64,000 nt of DNA. Source: an uncultured bacterium (GTDB lineage: Bacteria; Cyanobacteriota; Vampirovibrionia; Gastranaerophilales; Gastranaerophilaceae). The position numbers and the translations under genes were made by a program. This document shows, piece by piece, positions 5,853 to 40,445 of the stretch (position 1 is its first letter; every line of letters starts with the position of its first letter). The stretch covers positions 181,809 through 245,808 of the forward strand of contig CASEDF010000006.1 of the NCBI GenBank assembly GCA_949286705.1. Reading direction: 5' to 3'. The notes beneath the pieces were generated by a model. The model was not told where the DNA came from, ran no database searches, and saw only the letters and a list, made by a program, of their open reading frames with translations.

Positions 5853-7205
5853 ATGGATGAGTCGGGAAATTTAATTTTTAATTTATTCTTAATAGCATTC
5901 CTATTATTTTCAAACGGATTTTTTGTGGCAGCTGAATTTGCCATGGTAAAGGTCAGAAAAACCAGAATAGAGCAGCTTGTAAAAGAAGGCAACTACAGTG
6001 CGCAAATTGCGCTTGAAGCAATAAAAGATCTGGATAAATTTATTGCTGCGGTACAATTAGGTGTAACAATATCCAGTATCGGCTTAGGTTGGGTTGGCGA
6101 AGGGACATTGGCTCGCATAATTGAGCCGGTATTTGTATTTTTACCGGGCGTAAGCCAGACTATTGCAACCCATACGGTATCCGTTTCACTTGCATTTGCA
6201 CTAATCACATTCTTGCATGTTGTCTTAGGTGAACTTATTCCAAAATCTATTGCACTGGAATACACTGAAAAAACCGCACTTATAATTGCACGTCCAATGC
6301 AGGCAATTACATTTGTGTTTAATCCTTTTATCTGGCTCTTAAACGGCTTTGGCAACTGGGTTTTGAAACTAATGCATATTCCTCATTCGCATAAATCGTC
6401 ACTTGTGCATTCATCTGAAGAATTGGATATGCTTGTTGACGCAAGTTATAACGGCGGAGTATTGAATGAAACCGAAAAAGACATGCTTCATAACGTTTTC
6501 AAATTTTCCGACTTGACGGCAAAACAGGTTATGGTTCCGCGAACTGATATGGTTTGCGTGCCGATTGACATGTCTTTGGAAGAATTAAACAATGTTGCCA
6601 CTGAAAATCAATATACGAGATATCCGGTTTATGAAGGAGATATTGACCATATTACAGGACTAATTCACGTAAAAGATTTGTATAAATTATCGCTTGATGA
6701 CACCACATGCCCTATAGAACGCATTCAGCGTGAAATTTTACTGGTGCCTGAGACCATGACTATGGACAATCTGGTTTTGGAATTCAAAAAACGCAAAGGT
6801 CAAATGGCAATTGTAGTTGACGAATTCGGCGGAACATCAGGGCTTATAACACTTGAAGATGTAATTGAAGAAATTTTCGGCGATGTTCAGGATGAATTTG
6901 ACGAAGAAGAAGAACAAGAATGCGACATCAAAGAAATTGCGCCAAATACATATATAGCAAATGCAATGATGCGAACCGATGAAATCGCGGAATACTTCAA
7001 TATTGATGAAGAAGCAATTGATGACGAAGATATCGACACAATCGGCGGACTCGTTGTAAAACTTCTCGGAAGAATTGCTGAAGTCGGCGACACAGTAACC
7101 CATCTGGGATTAACCTTTATTGTAAAAGAAATTGAAGGCGCACGAATTACTAAACTTGAAATTATAAAAGAAGAAACTCCCGTTGCAGAACAGGTGCAGG
7201 AATAA
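5853..7205 (+). CDS. Hemolysin-family / CorC-type transporter-associated protein (DUF21-CBS-CorC_HlyC)
   Basis: 450 aa. N-terminal multi-TM DUF21, tandem CBS region, acidic linker, C-terminal CorC_HlyC-like domain. Confidence 0.85.
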   Translation: MDESGNLIFNLFLIAFLLFSNGFFVAAEFAMVKVRKTRIEQLVKEGNYSAQIALEAIKDLDKFIAAVQLGVTISSIGLGWVGEGTLARIIEPVFVFLPGVSQTIATHTVSVSLAFALITFLHVVLGELIPKSIALEYTEKTALIIARPMQAITFVFNPFIWLLNGFGNWVLKLMHIPHSHKSSLVHSSEELDMLVDASYNGGVLNETEKDMLHNVFKFSDLTAKQVMVPRTDMVCVPIDMSLEELNNVATENQYTRYPVYEGDIDHITGLIHVKDLYKLSLDDTTCPIERIQREILLVPETMTMDNLVLEFKKRKGQMAIVVDEFGGTSGLITLEDVIEEIFGDVQDEFDEEEEQECDIKEIAPNTYIANAMMRTDEIAEYFNIDEEAIDDEDIDTIGGLVVKLLGRIAEVGDTVTHLGLTFIVKEIEGARITKLEIIKEETPVAEQVQE

Positions 7206-7206
7206 T

Positions 7207-8136
7207 TTACTTTTCATTCAAGTATTTATAACTGCAACATGCTCCGGAAAGTTGTCTTCCTGTCAACAAATCGCCTGAGCCTAAAAATCCTTGCGCCTTT
7301 TCTATACCATATTCTTTACCGCATCCACAAGTTTCACCGTTAACATTTTTATTAAATGTTCCGTCTGCCCCGATTGGTCTTATCCAATTTTCATTCAGCA
7401 TAATGGCAAACATATCCCGCCCTACTACATTCGGTCCTTTTTGAAAACCGTTTACATCCACCGCTATTATAGGTGCACCATGCCCGCCAAAATATATTAC
7501 GGAACCGTCTTGCAATAAGATTGCTTTTTTAGATAAATCCCAGCCCGTATATAAACCGTTAAGCTGCGCATTATTACAACTTGATGAGCTCGTCGGTAAA
7601 TTTTTAAACGTACCGGAAATTAAAGATCCGTAAAAGCTGTATGCAGCAGCTCCACCGCAAAGCCCATTCCACTTGTCTAAATAATTATTGCAATATGCAC
7701 TCTCACCATATTGAGGAAATCCGCAGGTATCTATCACTTTGAAATGTTTTACCATAGCATTGACAAATTCCGGTGACATAGTAGTTCTCACTGCATAAAG
7801 CCCGTCATCAGGATATCTGCACTTTGCAGGCACATTATAATCCCCTGAATTGTTTACGCACAAACTATAATTATCAAGCTTTACGGCAGTGTATACCTGA
7901 CTAATTTCCGAAAATTTCTTTTTCCATATTGCTTTATTCTGCATATCACCAATTTTTTGAGATAAAGTAGGAATAGTCATTGCTGCGACAATGCCGATTA
8001 TGCCGAGGGTTATCAGAACTTCTGCCAGAGTAAACGCAGCTTTCTTTTTAAGGTCGTTAAGACGATAAGACTTTTGGACGTTAAGTTCTTTACTGAGGAC
8101 TTCGCTCACGTTTTTACTTTCCGAATTATAATTCAT
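7207..8136 (-). CDS. Type IV pilin-like protein A (prepilin-type N-terminal cleavage/methylation domain)
   Basis: AAFTLAEVLITLGIIGIVAAMTIP class III signal motif (F+1, E+5). C-terminal DVNG..GPN..GRDMF motif shared with paralogs. Start placed at ATG 8136 just after a consensus promoter. The frame stays open upstream to 8442 and beyond (see findings). Confidence 0.75.
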   Translation of the reverse strand: MNYNSESKNVSEVLSKELNVQKSYRLNDLKKKAAFTLAEVLITLGIIGIVAAMTIPTLSQKIGDMQNKAIWKKKFSEISQVYTAVKLDNYSLCVNNSGDYNVPAKCRYPDDGLYAVRTTMSPEFVNAMVKHFKVIDTCGFPQYGESAYCNNYLDKWNGLCGGAAAYSFYGSLISGTFKNLPTSSSSCNNAQLNGLYTGWDLSKKAILLQDGSVIYFGGHGAPIIAVDVNGFQKGPNVVGRDMFAIMLNENWIRPIGADGTFNKNVNGETCGCGKEYGIEKAQGFLGSGDLLTGRQLSGACCSYKYLNEK

Positions 8137-8145
8137 TATATTAGA

Positions 8146-8174
8146 ATTATAATTTGTTTCAGAGGGTGTGTCAA
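8146..8174 (-). promoter_or_regulatory. Perfect sigma-70 consensus promoter, 9 nt upstream of pilin A ATG
   Basis: Minus strand reads TTGACA (8174..8169) - 17 nt - TATAAT (8151..8146). No SD before the ATG. Confidence 0.65.
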
Positions 8175-8455
8175 TTCGTTTTGTAACTTTGTGATTGGGG
8201 TTACTAACCCGACTGTTAATTTTTCTGTCGGCATAGTAATGCCGACCTACATTTCCAAACCACCCCGGGATGACCTGCAAAGTTCCGCAAAAACCTAATA
8301 TGGTGTCGTGCCTCAGGCACTTCAGGATGGCAGACTCCATCCGAACATAACTATGTTGGGCCGTATTACTATGACGAATGTTACTTCTTAGTGCCTTAGT
8401 GCCATAGTATCTTAGTAACTTTTTCCAAACAATACCGCCCAAACCCTTGTTTACT

Positions 8456-8560
8456 TCATGTGCCGTTAAATTTTCTACAACTTCCCGTTGGTCGGGTCCA
8501 ACGGCTACGCTGGCTGGGAGAGTCGCCCCCCCCGAAATTCGAAAATATTTCTTTTCTCAT
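8456..8560 (-). other. SD-led mini-ORF containing a G8 tract (MRKEIFSNFGGG...)
   Basis: AAGGAGA, then 8 nt, then ATG (8560..8558). G8 occupies codons 10-12. Stop TGA at 8458..8456 in the present register. Confidence 0.5.
8526..8533 (-). repeat. Homopolymer G8 (C8 on plus strand)
   Basis: Counted directly: agtcg-cccccccc-gaaattc. Confidence 0.95.
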
Positions 8561-8587
8561 ATGCCATTCTCCTTCTTTTATGATTTT

Positions 8588-8596
8588 ATTATAACA
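8588..8596 (-). promoter_or_regulatory. Distal extended -10 promoter (TGTTATAAT) for the mini-ORF leader
   Basis: Minus strand tgt-tataat lies ~25 nt upstream of the SD. The paralogous position in locus B carries tga-tataat. Confidence 0.35.
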
Positions 8597-8690
8597 TAAA
8601 TCTACACCACATTAATGATATTTTAATTAATTCCTCTTTTAGTTGATCCAGCTGAATTGTATAGAAGATATACAAGAAAACATGCCTTAT

Positions 8691-8779
8691 ACATTTATTG
8701 TTAAAGAAATTGAAGGCGCACGAATTACTAAACTTGAAATTATAAAAAAACTCCCGCTGCAGAACAGGTGCAAGAGTAA
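8691..8779 (+). pseudogene. Duplicated, frameshifted 3' fragment of the corC-like gene
   Basis: 89 nt nearly identical to 7113-7205 (TFIVKEIEGARITKLEIIK). A 4-nt deletion breaks the frame. ORF 8643..8849 is an artefact of this fragment. Confidence 0.85.
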
Positions 8780-8781
8780 CA

Positions 8782-9462
8782 TTAAAAACCAAAGGGGTAA
8801 TCTTCGGGAATTTTCCAATTATTTTTTGCGATTAATGCTGCACATGTAAGATGCCTGTTTCCGACACATTTTTCCATAAGCTGCTCATCTGTAGCGGTAT
8901 CATTATAATGCATTCCATAAGGAACAACCCCGCTATTGAAATTATATGCATGCAAGACAAATACAAATATATTTTTGCCATATTCATCAGATATAGCAAT
9001 ATCTTCAGGATTACCGGATCCCATAGCCGGATAATTTTTATAATACTTTTTTGTGTTGTAAATATAATAGAAATATCTTCCATAGCTAAACACAGCCATA
9101 TCACCTGATTGAAAATATATTCCGACTGTCAGATTTGAATCAACATGTTTGTTATCTGCAGGATTATAATAACCACACTCGTAATCTGTTGTTTTCAGAT
9201 ATGGTGCCAAATATTGCTCATAAAAACCACACGAATCATATCCGTAATCTTTCCAAAATCGTCTTTCGCCATTTTCAATTTCTGACAATTTTATCGCCTG
9301 ATTAATTGTGGAATAAAACCTTGCCATACCGCTTTCAAGCACTTTCTTTTTATAATTCGAAATTAAATTCGGTATTGTCAATGCCGCAACTATACCGATT
9401 ATTGCAAGGGTTATTAATACCTCGGCAAGTGTAAATGCTCTTTTCATACTATAGTTTGCCAT
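8782..9462 (-). CDS. Type IV pilin-like protein B
   Basis: 226 aa starting MANYSMKR-AFTLAEVLITLAIIGIVAALTIP. ATG lies 6 nt after a consensus -10. Confidence 0.8.
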   Translation of the reverse strand: MANYSMKRAFTLAEVLITLAIIGIVAALTIPNLISNYKKKVLESGMARFYSTINQAIKLSEIENGERRFWKDYGYDSCGFYEQYLAPYLKTTDYECGYYNPADNKHVDSNLTVGIYFQSGDMAVFSYGRYFYYIYNTKKYYKNYPAMGSGNPEDIAISDEYGKNIFVFVLHAYNFNSGVVPYGMHYNDTATDEQLMEKCVGNRHLTCAALIAKNNWKIPEDYPFGF

Positions 9463-9468
9463 ATTGAA

Positions 9469-9497
9469 ATTATAGTTTATTCCGACAATACTGTCAA
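9469..9497 (-). promoter_or_regulatory. Perfect sigma-70 consensus promoter, 6 nt upstream of pilin B ATG (leaderless mRNA predicted)
   Basis: Minus strand reads TTGACA (9497..9492) - 17 nt - TATAAT (9474..9469) - ttcaat - ATG (9462). Confidence 0.65.
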
Positions 9498-9515: not shown

Positions 9516-9563
9516 TTAGAGGAGTCGCCCCCCCCCGAAATTTGAAAATATTTCTTTTCCCAT
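9516..9563 (-). other. SD-led mini-ORF containing a G9 tract (MGKEIFSNFGGGRLL*)
   Basis: AAGGAGA, then 8 nt, then ATG (9563..9561), then G9, then stop TAA at 9518..9516. Confidence 0.5.
9528..9536 (-). repeat. Homopolymer G9 (C9 on plus strand)
   Basis: Counted directly: gagtcg-ccccccccc-gaaattt. Confidence 0.95.
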
Positions 9564-9709
9564 ATGCGATTCTCCTTCTTTTATAAATTTATTATATCAC
9601 AAATCTACATCACTTTAATGATATTTTAATTAATTCCTCTTTTTAGTTGATGTAGCCAAGGCTATATTGTATAGAATAGAAATATATTAAACAATATTTG
9701 GGCGGATTA

Positions 9710-12447: not shown

Positions 12448-13272
12448 ATGGAAATAATAAAAAAACTCAAACTGAAAGATTTTGAAATCGGCGGGGATAA
12501 ATTAACTATCCTTGCAGGTCCCTGCGCTGCCGAAAGCATGGAGATTCTGGACGAAACCGCAAAAGGCTTAAAAGAAATAACAAAAAAATTGGATATTAAT
12601 TTTGTATTCAAATCATCTTTTGACAAGGCAAACCGTTCTTCTATAAATTCATACAGAGGACCCGGCTTAGAAAAAGGGCTTAAAATGCTTCAAACCATTA
12701 AGTCAAAATATGATATACCCATTGTGACTGATATCCACACACCGGATCAGGCGGAGCCTGTCAGTGAAGTTGCCGATATACTTCAAATTCCCGCTTTTTT
12801 ATGCAGACAGACAGATTTACTTATAGCTGCAGCAAAAACGGGTAAAATTGTAAACATTAAAAAGGGACAATTTTTAGCACCCGAGCAGATGGGCCCTCTG
12901 GTCAAAAAAGTTGAAGATTCCGGCAATAACAATATCTTACTTACCGACAGAGGCACCTCTTTCGGCTACAATAATTTAGTTGTAGATTTCAGAGCAATTC
13001 CTATAATGCTTGAATTCGGATACCCGATTGTATTTGACGCAACCCACAGTGTGCAGCTTCCTGGTGCAAACGGCACAAGCTCCGGCGGTGACAGAAGATT
13101 TGTACCTCCGCTTGCGAAAGCTGCTATGGCGGCAGGTGCCAATGCATTATTCTTTGAAGTTCATCCGGATCCTGACAAGGCTCTTTGTGACGGACCGAAT
13201 ATGATTGCATTAAAAGATGCTGAAGAACTTTTTAAACAATGTAAAGATATTTTTGAGATTGTGAGAAAATGA
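12448..13272 (+). CDS. kdsA: 3-deoxy-8-phosphooctulonate (KDO-8-P) synthase
   Basis: 274 aa with motifs LAGPCAAES, KSSFDKANRSS, VFDATHSVQLPG. Confidence 0.9.
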   Translation: MEIIKKLKLKDFEIGGDKLTILAGPCAAESMEILDETAKGLKEITKKLDINFVFKSSFDKANRSSINSYRGPGLEKGLKMLQTIKSKYDIPIVTDIHTPDQAEPVSEVADILQIPAFLCRQTDLLIAAAKTGKIVNIKKGQFLAPEQMGPLVKKVEDSGNNNILLTDRGTSFGYNNLVVDFRAIPIMLEFGYPIVFDATHSVQLPGANGTSSGGDRRFVPPLAKAAMAAGANALFFEVHPDPDKALCDGPNMIALKDAEELFKQCKDIFEIVRK

Positions 13273-27625: not shown

Positions 27626-29087
27626 AGAACTTATTGAATATCTTGATTATAAAGACCTTGTAAATTTCAAAAGCGTTGAAGTCAGCGGAATTTCGTATAA
27701 TTCCCAGACAACAAAAAAAGGCGACATTTTTATATGTCTTGCTGGTGAACATACAGACGGTCACGAATATGCGCAAATGGCAATTGATAACGGTGCCGTT
27801 GCACTTCTTGTCGAAAGACCGCTGGATATCAAAATTCCGCAGGTAGTTGTATCTAATACCCGCCACAAAATTGCGGATATTGCTGACAGGTTCTATTCAA
27901 GACCCTCTTTAGGCTTAAATTTAATCGGTATTACCGGAACAAACGGAAAAACAACCGTAACTCATTTAATCCAGCGTATTTTTGAGGAAAATAATCAAAA
28001 ATGTGCACTTATCGGTACTTTAGGATACAAATTATCCTCAAACGGAGAATACCGTGACGCAAAACACACAACACCTCAGGCACCCGAATTACAGGCCACA
28101 TTGAGAATGATTAAGGATGTTGAAAAAATTGATAATGTTGTGATGGAAGTAAGTTCCCACGCGCTTGAACAAAATAGAGTCGGCGGCTGCAGATTTGACG
28201 GAGCAGTGTTTACAAACCTGACACAGGATCATCTGGATTACCATATTACAATGGAAAATTATTTCAACGCAAAGGCAATTTTATTCAAAAACCTTAAGGA
28301 AGGCTGTTTTGCAGTTATAAACATTGATGACGCATACGGCGAAAGATTTTTAAACGTTGTGCCTGAAGGAGTCAGAAAATACACCTACGGTGTAAAAAAT
28401 ACAGCGGATGTTATGGCAAAGGATATTGAATTTTCTTTAAACGGTGCTGAATTTACACTTGTGACAAAAGACGGTGAATACAAAGTCAGCCTTCACATGA
28501 ACGGTATGTTCAGCGTTTATAACGTACTTGCAGCTATTACAACGGCAATTGCTCAAGGAATTGAGATAAAAACAGCACTTAAAGCGCTGGAAAACGTAAA
28601 AGGAGTTGCCGGAAGGTTTGAAGTTGTGGCTAAAAAGCCGTTGGTAATCGTGGATTATGCACACACGCCCGACGGTTTGGAAAACGTTTTAAATTCAGCA
28701 AGAGAAATTACGCCGAAAGACGGGCATTTAATCTGTTTGTTTGGCTGCGGCGGCGACAGAGATGCCACAAAACGTCCGAAGATGGGTGCAATTGCAGAAA
28801 GAATTGCCGACAAAATAGTGATTACATCAGATAACCCAAGAAGCGAAGACCCGCAGCAAATTATAACCGATATAATCGCGGGTTTAAAATCAACAGATCC
28901 TGAAAAAGTTACGGTAGAACCCGACAGAGGCCGTGCAATCGAATTGTTGAAAACGATTTCAGGTAATAATGATGTTATAGTTATTGCAGGAAAAGGTCAC
29001 GAGGATTATCAAATCTTAAAAGACAGAACAATCCATTTTGATGACCGTGAAGAAGCACGAAAAGTTTTTGAAGGAACAGCAGTTTAA
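27615..29087 (+). CDS. murE: UDP-MurNAc-L-Ala-D-Glu:meso-DAP ligase
   Basis: 490 aa with GITGTNGKTT P-loop and the DNPR motif (ITSDNPRSEDP) typical of DAP-adding MurE. Confidence 0.95.
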   Translation: MKLEELIEYLDYKDLVNFKSVEVSGISYNSQTTKKGDIFICLAGEHTDGHEYAQMAIDNGAVALLVERPLDIKIPQVVVSNTRHKIADIADRFYSRPSLGLNLIGITGTNGKTTVTHLIQRIFEENNQKCALIGTLGYKLSSNGEYRDAKHTTPQAPELQATLRMIKDVEKIDNVVMEVSSHALEQNRVGGCRFDGAVFTNLTQDHLDYHITMENYFNAKAILFKNLKEGCFAVINIDDAYGERFLNVVPEGVRKYTYGVKNTADVMAKDIEFSLNGAEFTLVTKDGEYKVSLHMNGMFSVYNVLAAITTAIAQGIEIKTALKALENVKGVAGRFEVVAKKPLVIVDYAHTPDGLENVLNSAREITPKDGHLICLFGCGGDRDATKRPKMGAIAERIADKIVITSDNPRSEDPQQIITDIIAGLKSTDPEKVTVEPDRGRAIELLKTISGNNDVIVIAGKGHEDYQILKDRTIHFDDREEARKVFEGTAV

Positions 29088-29839
29088 TAATTCATCTTCC
29101 GTTCTTGAAAAATTCTATAAGCACAGCTGTAACCTTTTTTATCGGATTCACAGGTATTTCTTTGATCTATTCCGTTATCAAGGAAAGGTTCATTTGTATA
29201 AGGAAGAATTTTTCCGTGTCCATCTTTTTTCATATACAACCAGAACACATCCCTGCCAATTTGATTAGGTCCGCTTTTGCCGTTTACATCTATAGTAAAC
29301 AATAAATCAGGCTGTCCCCAGAAAACCCCGACATTACTTTCCTTAAAACGCAAGCCTATAACCGCGCCATCAGATAAAATAAATTGATAATTTAGGTGAA
29401 ATAGTCTACAGTTTACATGATCTGTAACACTTGTACCTGTTTCGCCGTTTAGATACTTATAGTCATAAGGATTCACATGACATTCATTTTCAATACTATC
29501 ACTGATAGGTTCACATTCGCCGATAATCTTCAATTTTTTTCTGTATAAATCCACTATACGTTCATTATCAATATTGGTGCCGTCGTTTTGATAGTAGTCA
29601 GTCCAACTCCATTGTGCAGGATCTCCTTCTTCAGCGATTATCATATTTGTAGCATTTTGTAAAACAGAATACGTTTTGAATAATCTTTCTACATATCCTC
29701 TGTTTGAAATATTCGTAACAAGTGTAGGAATGGTTATGGCTGCCACTATGCCGATAATGCCTAAAGTTATTAATACTTCGGCAAGCGTAAAAGCAATTTT
29801 AGAACTATAATTCTTCATATACGAATTATAATTTAACAT
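29084..29839 (-). CDS. Type IV pilin-like protein C
   Basis: ...KI-AFTLAEVLITLGIIGIVAAITIP, C-terminal IDVNGKSGPNQIGRDVFW. The consensus promoter at 29825-29853 implies the in-frame ATG 29818 (MKNYSSKI-AFTLAEV) is the start on the proximal transcript. Confidence 0.8.
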   Translation of the reverse strand: MLNYNSYMKNYSSKIAFTLAEVLITLGIIGIVAAITIPTLVTNISNRGYVERLFKTYSVLQNATNMIIAEEGDPAQWSWTDYYQNDGTNIDNERIVDLYRKKLKIIGECEPISDSIENECHVNPYDYKYLNGETGTSVTDHVNCRLFHLNYQFILSDGAVIGLRFKESNVGVFWGQPDLLFTIDVNGKSGPNQIGRDVFWLYMKKDGHGKILPYTNEPFLDNGIDQRNTCESDKKGYSCAYRIFQERKMNY

Positions 29840-29853
29840 TTTTATCTTGTCAA
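29825..29853 (-). promoter_or_regulatory. Perfect sigma-70 consensus promoter, 6 nt upstream of ATG 29818
   Basis: Minus strand reads TTGACA (29853..29848) - 17 nt - TATAAT (29830..29825) - tcgtat - ATG. Confidence 0.65.
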
Positions 29854-29901: not shown

Positions 29902-29949
29902 TTAGAAAGGTCGCCCCCCCCCGTTATTCATATCTTCAACATACGCCAT
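29902..29949 (-). other. SD-led mini-ORF containing a G9 tract (MAYVEDMNNGGGRPF*)
   Basis: GGAGG, then 6 nt, then ATG (29949..29947), then G9, then stop TAA at 29904..29902. Confidence 0.5.
29914..29922 (-). repeat. Homopolymer G9 (C9 on plus strand)
   Basis: Counted directly: aggtcg-ccccccccc-gttattc. Confidence 0.95.
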
Positions 29950-29972
29950 AGCTTTCCTCCGTCTTTTTAAGT

Positions 29973-30001
29973 ATTATAACAGTATTTCAAATTTTTTGCA
30001 A
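29973..30001 (-). promoter_or_regulatory. Distal promoter TTGCAA-N17-TATAAT for the mini-ORF leader
   Basis: Minus strand reads ttgcaa aaaatttgaaatactgt tataat, 12 nt upstream of GGAGG. Confidence 0.5.
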
Positions 30002-34009: not shown

Positions 34010-34037
34010 TTGACAAAATAAATATATCTATTATAAT
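34010..34037 (+). promoter_or_regulatory. Near-consensus promoter TTGACA-N16-TATAAT facing pilin-like gene D
   Basis: TTGACA 34010-34015, TATAAT 34032-34037. Confidence 0.5.
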
Positions 34038-34046
34038 TCATATTAT

Positions 34047-34100
34047 AGAATTATATTTTAATAAGAAGAATTATATTTCAATATTAAAGAATTATAATAC
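34047..34100 (+). repeat. Three direct repeats AGAATTATA(T/A)(T/A)T at 20-21 bp phasing
   Basis: Copies start at 34047, 34067 and 34088. Related ATTATAAT/ACTATAA motifs continue at 34030, 34125 and 34146. Confidence 0.6.
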
Positions 34101-34160
34101 ACGTTGTATTTATCCTTAAAATGATTTATAATTCAGATATATTAAACTATAAATGGAGGA

Positions 34161-35222
34161 TTGATAAAGAAAAAGGGTTTTACTTTAGCAGAAGTTTTAA
34201 TTACGCTGGCAATTATCGGTGTTGTTGCGGCTATGACCATTCCGACATTAATTCAAAATTATCAGAAACACGCTTGGAATACAGCCTCTATGGTCTTTCA
34301 ACGAAAACTCGGCGATGCTTTAACAGTTATGAATTCTCAAGGTACTCTTGCAGGATATTCGTCTACTGAAGATTTCGTTGCTGAATTAGCAAAACATATG
34401 AAAATTTCCAAAATCTGCCGGAATAATGACCTTATGTCCTGTTTTTCCGATAAAGTATTCTGGGGTACTGAAAATGAAGAAATTGATATGACTAAAGTTA
34501 AAACCGTTAAAGACTTTGGAAGAGATGATTGGGAAGATACCGACATTATAGGCACTATGTTTGCTGACGGTACTACCGGACTTATTGCATATAACAAAGG
34601 CTGCAGGCAGGATCCTTATAGTAACAGAGTTATTACGACATCAAAAGAGGGTATCGGTACTGATTGTTTAGCTATTCTATATGATACCACAGGGTTTAAA
34701 ACTCCTAATACGCAGCAAGAAGATTTGAGAGGGTTAAATATTAAAAGTCTTGGGGGCAGCAGCTGTGCATTTGAAATTAACGGGATTTGTTTTACGGCGC
34801 CTTTTACGCCTGCTCCAATCACTATAGCCGAGTGCGAAAAACTTAAAGACGAGCTCCAAATACAAGAATGCCACTATGATGATGACTATTGGGCGGGAGC
34901 AGTCAAAACATGTGGAGGGGTAAATAAAATGCCAACTATGGCACAAATAGCTGAAATTGCTAATTATATATTTAACACATCTGATATTGGCGCCTATACA
35001 GATAAAATTAATAATGTAACACTTGATTATAATAAAGCTGCTGATCTGGGATTCACAGTTACACAAAATTCATCCTTTCTCATCTGGTCAAATGAAGAAA
35101 CTACGAATGATCCAGATGGATTAGGCTTAGCTTCTTCACGTGATTTTTATCCAACAGAAACAATGTGGAACAATGGAGCTCGTTTTTTTGACGCTCCGCA
35201 GGCAGTTTGCCTTGGTGATTAA
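34161..35222 (+). CDS. Type IV pilin-like protein D
   Basis: 353 aa starting (TTG)IKKKG-FTLAEVLITLAIIGVVAAMTIP, a classical short basic leader with Gly at -1. The start codon is uncertain (see findings). Confidence 0.75.
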   Translation: MIKKKGFTLAEVLITLAIIGVVAAMTIPTLIQNYQKHAWNTASMVFQRKLGDALTVMNSQGTLAGYSSTEDFVAELAKHMKISKICRNNDLMSCFSDKVFWGTENEEIDMTKVKTVKDFGRDDWEDTDIIGTMFADGTTGLIAYNKGCRQDPYSNRVITTSKEGIGTDCLAILYDTTGFKTPNTQQEDLRGLNIKSLGGSSCAFEINGICFTAPFTPAPITIAECEKLKDELQIQECHYDDDYWAGAVKTCGGVNKMPTMAQIAEIANYIFNTSDIGAYTDKINNVTLDYNKAADLGFTVTQNSSFLIWSNEETTNDPDGLGLASSRDFYPTETMWNNGARFFDAPQAVCLGD

Positions 35223-38572: not shown

Positions 38573-39208
38573 AAATTGATTTTCAACATCTGTAGGGATA
38601 TCTCTATACCAAGCAATATCTTTTCTGATAATTTTAGCTGGAGTTCCGGCATATATTGCATCTGAAATAGCACAATCTTTATTAACCAAACTTTTAGACG
38701 CAATTACAACATTATCTGCTATATGAACACCTTTATATACATTAACATCTTTTGCAAGCCAAACATGATTACCAATTTTTATACTCTTGCCTAAATTTAC
38801 GACCCCGCCCGTATGTTTATCAATTATCGCATGCGAATCCGTTGTTCTGATCTGAACTCTATTTGCAGTCATCACATCTTCACCTATGTCAATTGATAGA
38901 TTTGGTTCTTTAGATAACAATAAAATAACACCTACACATGAAAAATTTTTTCCGATGCATAATTTACTATTATCAGCCTGAGCTTCAATTCTTAAACCAC
39001 TCAGCTTATATGTTGAACTTTGAATTTCAATATTACAATTTGAACCTATTATCATTTTTGAACGTCTGAACTTTAAAGGCTGATGCAAAATAACAGTAGA
39101 ATTTTTCCCCAGGAATTTAATTCGACATCCTTTTATTCCTCTCAAACTGAATACTCTTTTCTTTTTACCTTTTTGATTTATTATATATATTTTATTTCCT
39201 TTAAACAT
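38555..39208 (-). CDS. Hexapeptide-repeat (left-handed beta-helix) acetyltransferase
   Basis: 217 aa with IGNHVWLAKDVNVYKGVHIADNVVIASKSLV hexapeptide repeats. Confidence 0.75.
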   Translation of the reverse strand: MFKGNKIYIINQKGKKKRVFSLRGIKGCRIKFLGKNSTVILHQPLKFRRSKMIIGSNCNIEIQSSTYKLSGLRIEAQADNSKLCIGKNFSCVGVILLLSKEPNLSIDIGEDVMTANRVQIRTTDSHAIIDKHTGGVVNLGKSIKIGNHVWLAKDVNVYKGVHIADNVVIASKSLVNKDCAISDAIYAGTPAKIIRKDIAWYRDIPTDVENQFLYSDD

Positions 39209-40445
39209 TTATAATCTTCTCCAATAAATCAACAACTTTTTCCGATGCATGACCATTTTCAATACATCTTTTATTTTCTAAAAATTCTTCAACTTTATCT
39301 TTATATTCTTTCTCGTCAAAATTCAAAATATTTTTATTTAACGTATCATTATCAACAGCTATAGGAAATGGTGTTGACTCAAGAGGATAATAAAATCCCG
39401 GATTGATCTCGTACTCTTTTAAATCCTTTGCAAAAATAAAACATGGTTTTCTTGACAGCATAAAATCAAACATACAGCTTGAATAATCACTTATCATAAA
39501 ATCGCTTACCAGCATTAATTCTTGTATATCACCATATTTTGTAACATCGACTATGTTGCGGGATTTAGGTATATGCAAATTTGTCATTTCATGATGTAAT
39601 CGGGTAAATATAACAAATTTACAATTATATTTTCTTTCAAAAGTATTCAAAATATTAAGATAATCAATATCATAACAATCATTATTTTTTAAGCTACTTC
39701 TAAAAGTCGGAGCAAATAAAATTATTTTTGCACCCGGTTCTACGTTATACAATTTGAAAATTTTATTTTTAATCTCTGCTATTTGCTCGTTTGATTTAAA
39801 AAACACATCATTGCGGGGATGACCAATATGTAAAATATTTCGATTCGGGAGTCTGTGTTCAAATACCATATCATCAACATCAGAATTCGATAATAAATAA
39901 TCCACAAAAGATACATCTTTTTGTGTCAAATCAATATATTGATTTGATATATCAACAGCGCTATCCAGACCTATCTTTTTGATTCCCAAAGAGCCATGCC
40001 ATGTTTGAATATAAATCTGGTCTTTTTTCTTACACAAACCTTTTTTAACATGATAAAGCTTTGCCTGATTATCAACCCATACTTTTGCTGTTGCCAGCTC
40101 TTTTAGTGCCTTTTTACTTTTATAATCAACCAATCTTACTTGCGGAGGAAATTCAGAAAAATCAATTTCACGTGAATTCTTATCAACTAACCATACAAGC
40201 TCAAAAGAATTTCCCCCCCTGTTTAACATCTCCTCGGCGATATATTTAGGATTACATCCGTACCCGCGTTTGCCTTTGGCATTACAGAAAACAATTTTGT
40301 TATTTTGAACAGGTAAATTTTTGTAATGTTCAAAATTTTTTGTCATATCATAACAAAAATTCAACCCTAATATTGTAAAGCTTTTCTTTGTTCCTTCATT
40401 TTTTACAGAAAAAATCCAATTCAAAAAATGTTTATTTTTCATCAT
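39201..40445 (-). CDS. CDP-glycerol/ribitol glycerophosphotransferase family protein (TagB/TagF type)
   Basis: 414 aa. The layout LFAPTFR...YSSCMFDFMLSRKPCIFFAKD is typical of the Glyphos_transf domain. Confidence 0.75.
   Translation of the reverse strand: MMKNKHFLNWIFSVKNEGTKKSFTILGLNFCYDMTKNFEHYKNLPVQNNKIVFCNAKGKRGYGCNPKYIAEEMLNRGGNSFELVWLVDKNSREIDFSEFPPQVRLVDYKSKKALKELATAKVWVDNQAKLYHVKKGLCKKKDQIYIQTWHGSLGIKKIGLDSAVDISNQYIDLTQKDVSFVDYLLSNSDVDDMVFEHRLPNRNILHIGHPRNDVFFKSNEQIAEIKNKIFKLYNVEPGAKIILFAPTFRSSLKNNDCYDIDYLNILNTFERKYNCKFVIFTRLHHEMTNLHIPKSRNIVDVTKYGDIQELMLVSDFMISDYSSCMFDFMLSRKPCFIFAKDLKEYEINPGFYYPLESTPFPIAVDNDTLNKNILNFDEKEYKDKVEEFLENKRCIENGHASEKVVDLLEKIINV

Follow-up and report, generated by a model that had tools for sequence, protein, structure and literature searches.

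A poly-G tract upstream of a type IV prepilin gene

The locus described here raises the question of whether the length of a short homopolymeric G tract decides if a type IV prepilin gene is translated from an upstream, Shine-Dalgarno (SD)-led start codon. It lies on the minus strand of a 64-kb window (the whole stretch of 64,000 nucleotides that was analysed) from the Gastranaerophilales (Melainabacteria/Vampirovibrionia), an uncultured group of gut bacteria of humans and animals that is related to cyanobacteria and does not photosynthesise. To our knowledge, almost nothing is known of how these bacteria deal with their host. A preliminary description of this DNA had placed an SD 8 nt before an ATG at 8560 and, behind that ATG, a mini-ORF running through G8 (8533..8526) to a stop at 8456. 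Direct reading of the minus strand confirmed both statements: the SD AAGGAG at 8574..8569 is separated from ATG 8560 by an 8-nt spacer, and the mini-ORF begins MRKEIFSNFGGG..., crosses the G8 tract and ends at 8456. The features of this region, hereafter locus A, are as follows.

8588..8596, minus strand: distal promoter P1, an extended -10 element (TGtTATAAT), from direct reading
8569..8574, minus strand: Shine-Dalgarno sequence AAGGAG, from direct reading
8565..8567, minus strand: second ATG, 1 nt 3' of the SD, in the pilin frame at G6, G9 or G12; start of the 453-aa gene called in two other assemblies (L001, L002)
8456..8560, minus strand: mini-ORF starting at the SD-led ATG 8560, which at G8 reads MRKEIFSNFGGGDSPSQRSRWTRPTGSCRKFNGT (34 codons plus stop)
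8526..8533, minus strand: homopolymeric G8 tract, the candidate switch, from direct reading
8526..8640, minus strand: 115-nt putative switch module (P1, SD, mini-ORF head and tract), with a copy at 9529..9643 (92% identity)
8137..8525, minus strand: linker of 130 stop-free codons in the pilin frame (counting tract base 8526), containing P2
8146..8174, minus strand: proximal promoter P2, a perfect TTGACA-17-TATAAT; the long form reads it as the codons xTT GAC Axx and TAT AAT
7207..8136, minus strand: prepilin gene with the proximal ATG 8136 as its start, which has no SD and follows the -10 by 9 nt; it matches PF07963 (N_methyl) and TIGR02532

From the tract onward, the pilin frame of locus A stays open as an ORF of 411+ codons, which carries KKKA^AFTLAEVLITLGIIGIVAA (^ marks the cleavage point); the prepilin has a 33-aa leader, with the cleavage motif A^FTLAEV at 8037. 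As the preliminary description had it, a tract of G7 or G10 joins ATG 8560 to the prepilin, in a product of 450 or 451 aa. Registers that make this junction are referred to as ON and the others as OFF. Its stop-free linker is also there, open from the tract into the pilin, but measures 130 codons as far as ATG 8136, the proximal start of the pilin, or 162 codons up to AFTLAEV, rather than about 140. In registers other than G7 and G10, the peptide from ATG 8560 is 17-34 aa long, with the stop falling 6 codons (G9) or 22 codons (G8) after the tract. At G9 the second ATG, at 8567, shares the pilin frame, which leaves G8 as the sole register that is OFF for both ATGs; any use of ATG 8567 is probably weak given its poor SD spacing. 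At G8, locus A in the window is thus OFF for both possible upstream ATGs, neither of which is in the pilin frame, and the OFF state assigned to it earlier stands.

Each long G tract of the window precedes a pilin gene

Two further loci of the window, B and C, have the same order of elements as locus A: P1, a strong SD, an ATG followed by 7-9 codons, the G tract, a linker, P2 and an SD-less pilin ATG, the last lying 6 nt after P2 at B and C and 9 nt after it at A.

9516..9563, minus strand: mini-ORF of locus B, which at G9 reads MGKEIFSNFGGGRLL followed by a stop; SD at 9577..9572 and extended -10 at 9599..9591
9528..9536, minus strand: G9 tract of locus B, OFF, with ON at G7 or G10, from direct reading
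9469..9497, minus strand: P2 of locus B, a perfect TTGACA-17-TATAAT, 6 nt before ATG 9462
8782..9462, minus strand: prepilin gene of locus B, 226 aa, matching N_methyl and DUF6613
30001..29973, minus strand: P1 of locus C, TTGCAA-17-TATAAT
29902..29949, minus strand: mini-ORF of locus C, which at G9 reads MAYVEDMNNGGGRPF followed by a stop; SD GGAGG at 29960..29956
29914..29922, minus strand: G9 tract of locus C, OFF, with ON at G7 or G10, from direct reading
29825..29853, minus strand: P2 of locus C, a perfect TTGACA-17-TATAAT, 6 nt before ATG 29818
29084..29818, minus strand: prepilin gene of locus C, 244 aa from the leaderless ATG

Both loci follow the rule already proposed for them, namely that the mini-ORF and pilin frames join when the tract length is 1 mod 3, and both are at G9. 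In addition to the 115-nt module, the 3' tail of a neighbouring corC-type gene, with a terminator-like hairpin, is duplicated downstream of pilins A and B, so that the two loci resemble a pair of cassettes with shared flanks.

Long G/C runs are far more frequent in the window than its base composition would predict. In this 35% GC sequence, six G/C runs are 5 nt long, no run has 6 nt, single runs have 7 and 8 nt, and two have 9 nt, so that three runs of at least 8 were observed vs 0.12 per window in shuffles. All three are on the same strand, each upstream of a pilin. Perfect consensus promoters show a similar association, with four of the five in the 64-kb window preceding its four pilin-like genes. 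Since the pilin ATG stands at position 7 after the P2 -10, a leaderless mRNA is expected from P2. This type of start looks normal for the organism, as the same arrangement (TATAAT-6/7-ATG) is also found at non-pilin genes of the window (12448, 30031, 60411 and 4961).

The pilins of the window share the prepilin motif (K/R)A^FTLAEVLITLGIIGIVAA. All three of pilins A, B and C score above the TIGR02532 cut-off; for PF07963 (N_methyl), A and B are above the cut-off and C is below it. Membership of the PilC/PilY1 family was considered and rejected, as the pilin products match N_methyl or DUF6613 models only. The ORFs scanned in the 64-kb window included no PilB/C/D-type genes.

The architecture recurs in a family of loci in related MAGs

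Genomes were scanned with a generic DNA pattern consisting of G8+, a 30-60 nt gap and a perfect promoter, which required no SD, mini-ORF, CGAC or pilin. The scan returned at least 117 matches, at least 23 of which are pilin-linked. Among the matches listed, all of the pilin-linked loci fall in six MAGs (with 8, 6, 3, 3, 2 and 1 loci), five of them labelled Candidatus Gastranaerophilales, and the remaining matches are scattered over phyla without a pilin. These non-pilin matches include Monoglobus and Lachnospira, where variable G tracts stand at a similar distance from perfect promoters. In the JGI metagenomes, a pattern for the A/B module gave no matches and an architecture pattern gave four chance matches, without pilins.

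The 23 pilin-linked loci among the matches listed and loci A, B and C of the window were combined into a family set of 26 loci. A mini-ORF start with GGAG or GGAGG 5-8 nt upstream is present in 26/26, the choice of start having favoured SD-preceded ones, and most family loci, like A, B and C, have a P1-type element 5' of the SD. The frame from the tract to the pilin motif is open in all 26 as well, a count that does not represent independent trials because the loci are homologous. The continuity of frame between tract and pilin on which the preliminary description depended thus holds in orthologs, including those of B (L031) and C (L042). Following the tract there is a conserved C-R-N-CTYCTYTAAGTAG, and both other frames stop within 3-4 codons in most of the listed loci. 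The peptides of OFF loci in the listed family share a conserved end, ...GGG[RQH]L[LS]-stop. From the tract to the -35 of P2, the distance is 29-30 or 60 nt in most listed loci and 352 nt at locus A.

Tract lengths in the 26 loci (the 23 among the matches listed and the window's three) are G8 in one, G9 in 16, G10 in eight and G11 in one. The ON register of the listed family loci varies with the head of the mini-ORF, being 7/10/13, 6/9/12 or 8/11. When each tract is read against its own head, six of these 26 loci are ON and 20 are OFF, and both states can occur together, one genome having three ON and five OFF loci among the matches listed. The influence of the head is clearest for L042 and L087, which are identical over the 367 nt downstream of the tract; because their mini-ORF heads differ, the same G9 is OFF in one and ON in the other. 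Among the loci listed, 18 of the 20 that are OFF are exactly one G short of ON. Either an equilibrium of mutation at G9-G10 together with selection favouring OFF, or slippage at the RNA level through which G9 would be leaky, would fit this excess.

ON and OFF alleles of the same loci

The preliminary description had called for tract length to be compared across strains, and it is not invariant: three loci are polymorphic between near-identical assemblies, namely locus A (G8/G9) and the pairs L029/L132 and L019/L150. Over 3,728 nt, the OFF allele L029 (G9) and the ON allele L132 (G10) share 99.76% identity, and no indel other than that in the tract separates them. On the L132 contig, the fused form of the L029 locus is present as the called protein P0056 (283 aa, MTYLRKHNGGGATPLSRYSKQLDTILHKNYNSYMRKYSFKKGFTLAEV...). 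Likewise, L019 (G9, OFF) and L150 (G10, ON) are 99.1% identical over 443 nt and differ in length at the tract only, and P0177 is the fused form of L019. We had also considered L038 as an allele of L019, but the two are paralogs that have only the module and the 5' end of the pilin in common, L150 being the true allele.

Fused ON-form prepilins are found among called proteins (P0002, P0056, P0058, P0127, P0177 and others). In a regex screen of the 226 motif-bearing homolog cluster representatives from all three protein searches, eight carried the full ON signature. A leader-only protein query for ON forms retrieved just ten short pilin fragments, P0056 not being among them. In L133-135, the proximal ATG has been lost (ACG) and the tract is G10 ON in 3/3 assemblies; with ACG in place of the proximal ATG, the pilin could be made only via the SD-led long form. 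From L133-135 and the fused representatives, the long form appears to be functional.

Tract length within the species and the linker of locus A

Other assemblies of the same species were obtained by exact-protein look-ups of neighbouring genes, and the tract lengths given for them are those of the assembly consensus. At locus A, G8 occurs in the window only, and L001, L002, L009, L010 and L011 have G9. In a 2.6-kb alignment, the tract is the sole indel in or upstream of locus A; the other indel of the alignment is in a T run at 8750. The lone G8 could be an assembly error or miscall of G9. Locus B is G9 in 9/9 assemblies and locus C is G9 in 11/11, the latter look-up being biased toward OFF because the short product was the query. 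Of the 26 observations in the species of the window, 25 therefore have G9 as the consensus (A 5/6, B 9/9, C 11/11), and this length persists despite substitutions nearby. No fused forms of B or C are on record. Exact-protein look-ups gave no match for pilin C as 251 aa or for the NagA-like neighbour, and that for MurE gave one contig, which ends before locus C.

The openness of the linker at locus A had been called unusual, and shuffling bears this out: the probability of an open frame after shuffling is 2e-4 for the linker of A, as against 0.16 for B and 0.07 for C. The linker of locus A has 44% GC, above the 35% of the window. Compared with it, the L009 allele has 31 substitutions, distributed equally among the codon positions, together with a 54-nt indel that preserves the frame, and dN/dS against this allele is about 1.4 in the linker vs 0.35 in the mature pilin. 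Judging from these comparisons, the frame of the locus A linker is kept open and its peptide is not conserved. With P2 being read as codons in the long form, the frame stays open. A structured RNA or riboswitch in the 390-nt linker was considered and dropped (no Rfam match at gathering score or E<=1; fold z = -0.89), as was a conserved protein domain (no Pfam/NCBIfam match, in addition to the dN/dS of about 1.4).

A proposed translational switch and its alternatives

We propose, at a probability of roughly three in four, that locus A, together with B and C, is a contingency switch in which the length of the poly-G tract gates SD-led read-through into a type IV prepilin gene. The features known from SSR contingency loci are present at the level of sequence: an over-represented tract long enough to be hypermutable (7-8 units or more), a translated position and length polymorphism at the same locus. 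In the ON register (G7 or G10 for ATG 8560), translation would proceed from the mini-ORF via the stop-free linker, including the gene's own P2 read as codons, into the prepilin. The 35-160 added residues would merely extend the leader, which prepilin peptidase presumably removes at (A or G)^FTLAEV to leave the same mature pilin. In the other two registers, ribosomes would halt shortly after the tract (3-4 codons in canonical loci), and the internal, SD-less pilin ATG on the P1 transcript would then probably go unused.

Slipped-strand mispairing at replication would alter the tract by +/-1 G, so that the state should be both heritable and reversible, as the allele pairs and established knowledge of poly-G tracts suggest; reversal may occur at high frequency. 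With many pilin paralogs per genome, each having its own switch, a population would display combinations of pilins. A second route to the pilin would be the leaderless mRNA from P2, whose expression is probably independent of the tract. Given a perfect P2 and a leaderless ATG, the OFF state may be low or basal rather than silent, in which case the tract would toggle between low and high rather than between off and on. We suggest, more tentatively and at somewhat less than even odds, a wider scheme in which the 115-nt unit (P1, SD, mini-ORF head, poly-G and double stop trap) is a portable cassette that recombines among pilin paralogs and gives strongly transcribed, leaderless pilin genes two levels of output, a low basal one from the leaderless mRNA and a high, stochastically switched one from the SD-led fusion; at least eight independently switched pilins per genome would provide a combinatorial pilus/adhesin repertoire in the host, and RNA slippage at G9 may add a leaky third level.

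Non-heritable recoding offers a different reading of the same tracts, and one that we judge improbable. G9 would be the working state, RNA polymerase would add a G or ribosomes would slip -1 on G_GGG_GGG, the ratio of long to short product would be fixed and low, and changes of length in the DNA would be incidental. Such a mechanism would account for the 18 of 20 listed OFF loci that are one G short of ON and for the G9 consensus (25/26) in this species despite nearby substitutions; the tract also fits X_XXY_YYZ formally, and a 0-frame stop 3-4 codons past the slippery run is typical of frameshift sites. However, G10 ON alleles exist in DNA at the same loci and six of the 26 listed loci are ON, which means that the DNA state does change and is tolerated. 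Furthermore, at 5-9 nt past the tract there is no conserved structure (z-scores are mostly -0.1 to -1.6), the sole recurrent hairpin being one that pairs the tract itself with the pyrimidine run after it, and we know of no efficient -1 slippery codon with GGG in the A site. Recoding and DNA switching are compatible, and slippage could make the OFF state leaky. It is very unlikely, in our estimation, that the variation is transcriptional, with the tract serving as a variable spacer or upstream element that tunes P2 or the interplay of P1 and P2 and with the open frame irrelevant. Poly-C/G tracts near promoters do control Bordetella fim and several Neisseria genes, most listed loci have a perfect promoter whose -35 follows the tract at 29-30 or 60 nt, and the non-pilin matches in Monoglobus and Lachnospira have variable G tracts at a similar promoter distance. 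At locus A, however, 352 nt separate the tract from the -35, and the tract is not between promoter elements but downstream of P1 and its SD and ATG. A spacer would also leave unexplained the conserved SD and ATG, the open frames in 26/26 listed loci, the double stop trap and the ON registers set by the mini-ORF head, as well as the opposite states of L042 and L087, identical 3' of the tract, and the finding that L133-135, which have no proximal ATG, are all ON.

The contingency switch that we favour also has to be set against two readings that assign the mini-ORF another role or none. As a regulatory uORF, it could act by attenuation, its tract-set length controlling transcriptional read-through as in the design of S. 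gallolyticus pil1, or it could sense Gly-tRNA via rare GGG codons. The idea of an SSR within a short ORF upstream of a pilus gene has a precedent (PMC3894217), and the conserved end of the OFF peptides, ...GGG[RQH]L[LS]-stop, also speaks for it. We nevertheless give this reading very little credence: neither A nor B has an intrinsic terminator on the minus strand in the stretch from the mini-ORF to the pilin, the gap between tract and P2 is only 30 nt in B-type loci, and attenuation needs no open frame into the pilin, yet all 26 listed loci have one. Rho-dependent polarity in the OFF state is possible as an addition to the proposed switch. That the upstream pieces are functionless, either remnants of a longer gene in decay or homopolymer errors of assembly, could draw on the linker of locus A being neutral at the amino-acid level and on the G8 of the window being a singleton. 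It is nonetheless scarcely credible given an architecture kept in at least six genomes and 26 listed loci, with strong SDs, P1 promoters and stop traps, and fused ON alleles that encode full-length pilins.

Relation to known phase-variable loci

The preliminary description likened locus A to Neisseria pilC. The parallel is sound for the proposed mechanism, a poly-G translational switch, and fails for the gene family, as the gene here is a pilin. Phase variation of pilC in N. gonorrhoeae and N. meningitidis through a poly-G tract in the signal-peptide coding region was reportedly described by Jonsson et al. in 1991. In both cases, a type IV pilus gene has a G tract in its N-terminal region, where the leader is encoded, and +/-1 G decides between a full-length and a truncated product; in Neisseria, stochastic piliation and adhesion phenotypes result. 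PilC, however, is a tip adhesin and assembly factor (PilC/PilY1) with the tract in its own signal peptide, whereas the tract in Gastranaerophilales belongs to a separate, apparently portable mini-ORF module whose fusion to the prepilin leader would span an embedded promoter. The Gastranaerophilales pilin, moreover, still has a leaderless start of its own, and each genome would contain many switched paralogs.

Campylobacter jejuni, another AT-rich and gut-associated genome, has many G8-G11 tracts at genes for surface structures, with G9 and G10 as the modal lengths, and its combinations of ON and OFF likewise differ between strains. C. jejuni belongs to another phylum, its tracts are mostly inside the ordinary coding sequences of glycosylation, capsule and LOS genes, and it is not known to have a dedicated cassette of SD, mini-ORF, tract and stop trap before pilins. 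In the LOS genes lic1A and lic2A of Haemophilus influenzae, tetranucleotide repeats are downstream of several ATGs in different frames. Locus A recalls this 'volume control' logic, as its ATGs 8567 and 8560 are in two frames and two of the three tract registers can consequently reach the pilin, probably with unequal efficiency; here, though, the second ATG is found at locus A only and has poor SD spacing. Homopolymer length also controls fimbrial or surface genes in Bordetella pertussis (fim2/fim3) and Neisseria (porA/opc), where poly-C/G tracts act as spacers within promoters, but the tract described here lies within an ORF that is translated and precedes the -35 of P2 by 29-352 nt.

In S. 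gallolyticus pil1, GCAGA repeats alter the length of a leader and ribosomes destabilise a terminator, controlling sortase-dependent pili (PMC3894217). The likeness is that the distance covered by ribosomes, and with it pilus expression, depends on an SSR within a short leader ORF upstream, giving a heterogeneous population (PMC3894217). The Gastranaerophilales loci differ in having no terminator in A or B and in a leader ORF that fuses directly to a type IV prepilin. The literature searched yielded no account of pilins switched by a homopolymer in Melainabacteria/Gastranaerophilales. The proposed system is thus of a known kind, an SSR contingency switch, and what is new is the portable upstream module, fused across an embedded promoter to leaderless pilins, in many paralogs of a little-known gut lineage.

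If this reading is true, Gastranaerophilales share bet-hedging surface variation with Neisseria, Campylobacter and Helicobacter. A consensus promoter and a leaderless start embedded as codons in a switchable leader would also make these loci naturally suited to a comparison of SD-led with leaderless translation of one protein. On the practical side, gene callers give these pilins two different N-termini, depending on the tract, and assemblies often break at poly-G pilin loci.

Duplicated sequence and possible recombination at the pilin switch loci

Judged from their sequence, loci A and B, two of the three window pilin genes with an SD-led mini-ORF and a poly-G tract upstream, look like a pair of cassettes with identical flanks, because the 3′ tail of a corC-type gene and the 115-nt switch module (P1, SD, mini-ORF head and tract) are both duplicated. 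A second copy of the corC-type tail lies downstream of pilin B (7113..7205 versus 8691..8779; 95% and 89% identity), and the switch module is found at 8526..8640 and again at 9529..9643, with 92% identity. These repeats are the break points of several public assemblies. The tail copies contain terminator-like hairpins:

7194..7179, pilin strand, terminator-like hairpin
8768..8753, pilin strand, terminator-like hairpin

Two paralogous loci of a single Gastranaerophilales MAG (BRZ_LT__bin40), L042 and L087, share 367 nt of 100% identical sequence running from the tract into the pilin. Both carry G9, and as their mini-ORF heads are unlike each other, the same tract is OFF (mini-ORF and prepilin frames not joined) in one and ON (joined) in the other, a pattern suggesting that switch loci have recently recombined or undergone gene conversion with one another.

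At the locus of P0058, a prepilin called in the fused ON form, ACG stands in place of the proximal pilin ATG (L133, L134 and L135, from E08__bin114 and two other samples), so that the pilin there would be makeable only as the long SD-led form. The tract is G10 and ON in 3/3 assemblies, and the perfect P2 promoter (TTGACA-17-TATAAT) is kept despite the ACG.

In predicted RNA folds of loci A, B and C and of the family loci (pilin-linked tract loci in related MAGs), the G tract pairs with a conserved pyrimidine run directly 3′ of it, forming a hairpin capped with a GCAA or GCGA (GNRA-like) loop. This pairing may play a part in slippage or in ribosome pausing, or have no effect. In the window, these predicted hairpins are:

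9518..9536, minus strand, tract-pyrimidine hairpin
29904..29922, minus strand, tract-pyrimidine hairpin
8516..8533, minus strand, tract-pyrimidine hairpin

Related elements without a pilin or without a tract

A fourth pilin-like gene has a perfect TTGACA-16-TATAAT promoter without a G tract, followed by a leader of ~120 nt in which GAATTATA(A)T motifs recur. The TTG start is putative, since GGAGG ends just 1 nt before it.

34010..35222, plus strand, fourth pilin-like gene, 353 aa, KKKG|FTLAEV

In this organism, leaderless mRNAs seem to be frequent, to judge from four non-pilin genes (12448, 30031, 60411 and 4961 (+)) at which a perfect TATAAT lies 6-7 nt ahead of the ATG, leaving no room for an SD; at 12448 and 4961, this ATG agrees with the public gene call.

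A genome search for G8 or longer, a gap and a perfect promoter, with no pilin required, returned recurrent non-pilin matches, among those listed, in Monoglobus (L018, L032, L086, L095) and Lachnospira (L024, L039) MAGs. In a conserved context, a G9 or G10 tract precedes a perfect TTGACA-17-TATAAT by ~50-56 nt, and tract length varies from species to species; one possibility is that these are unrelated clostridial promoters under homopolymer control.

Besides the tracts of A, B and C, the sole long G/C run in the 64-kb window is a G7 at 40213..40219 (minus strand), in frame inside ORF 39201..40445(-). Its product is a TagF-type CDP-glycerol glycerophosphotransferase (PF04464), and the gene may be one more contingency locus, at present ON. 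It belongs to a surface-glycopolymer cluster (39.2-44.1 kb) together with genes for an epimerase, an IspD-like cytidylyltransferase and a GT8-LicD protein.
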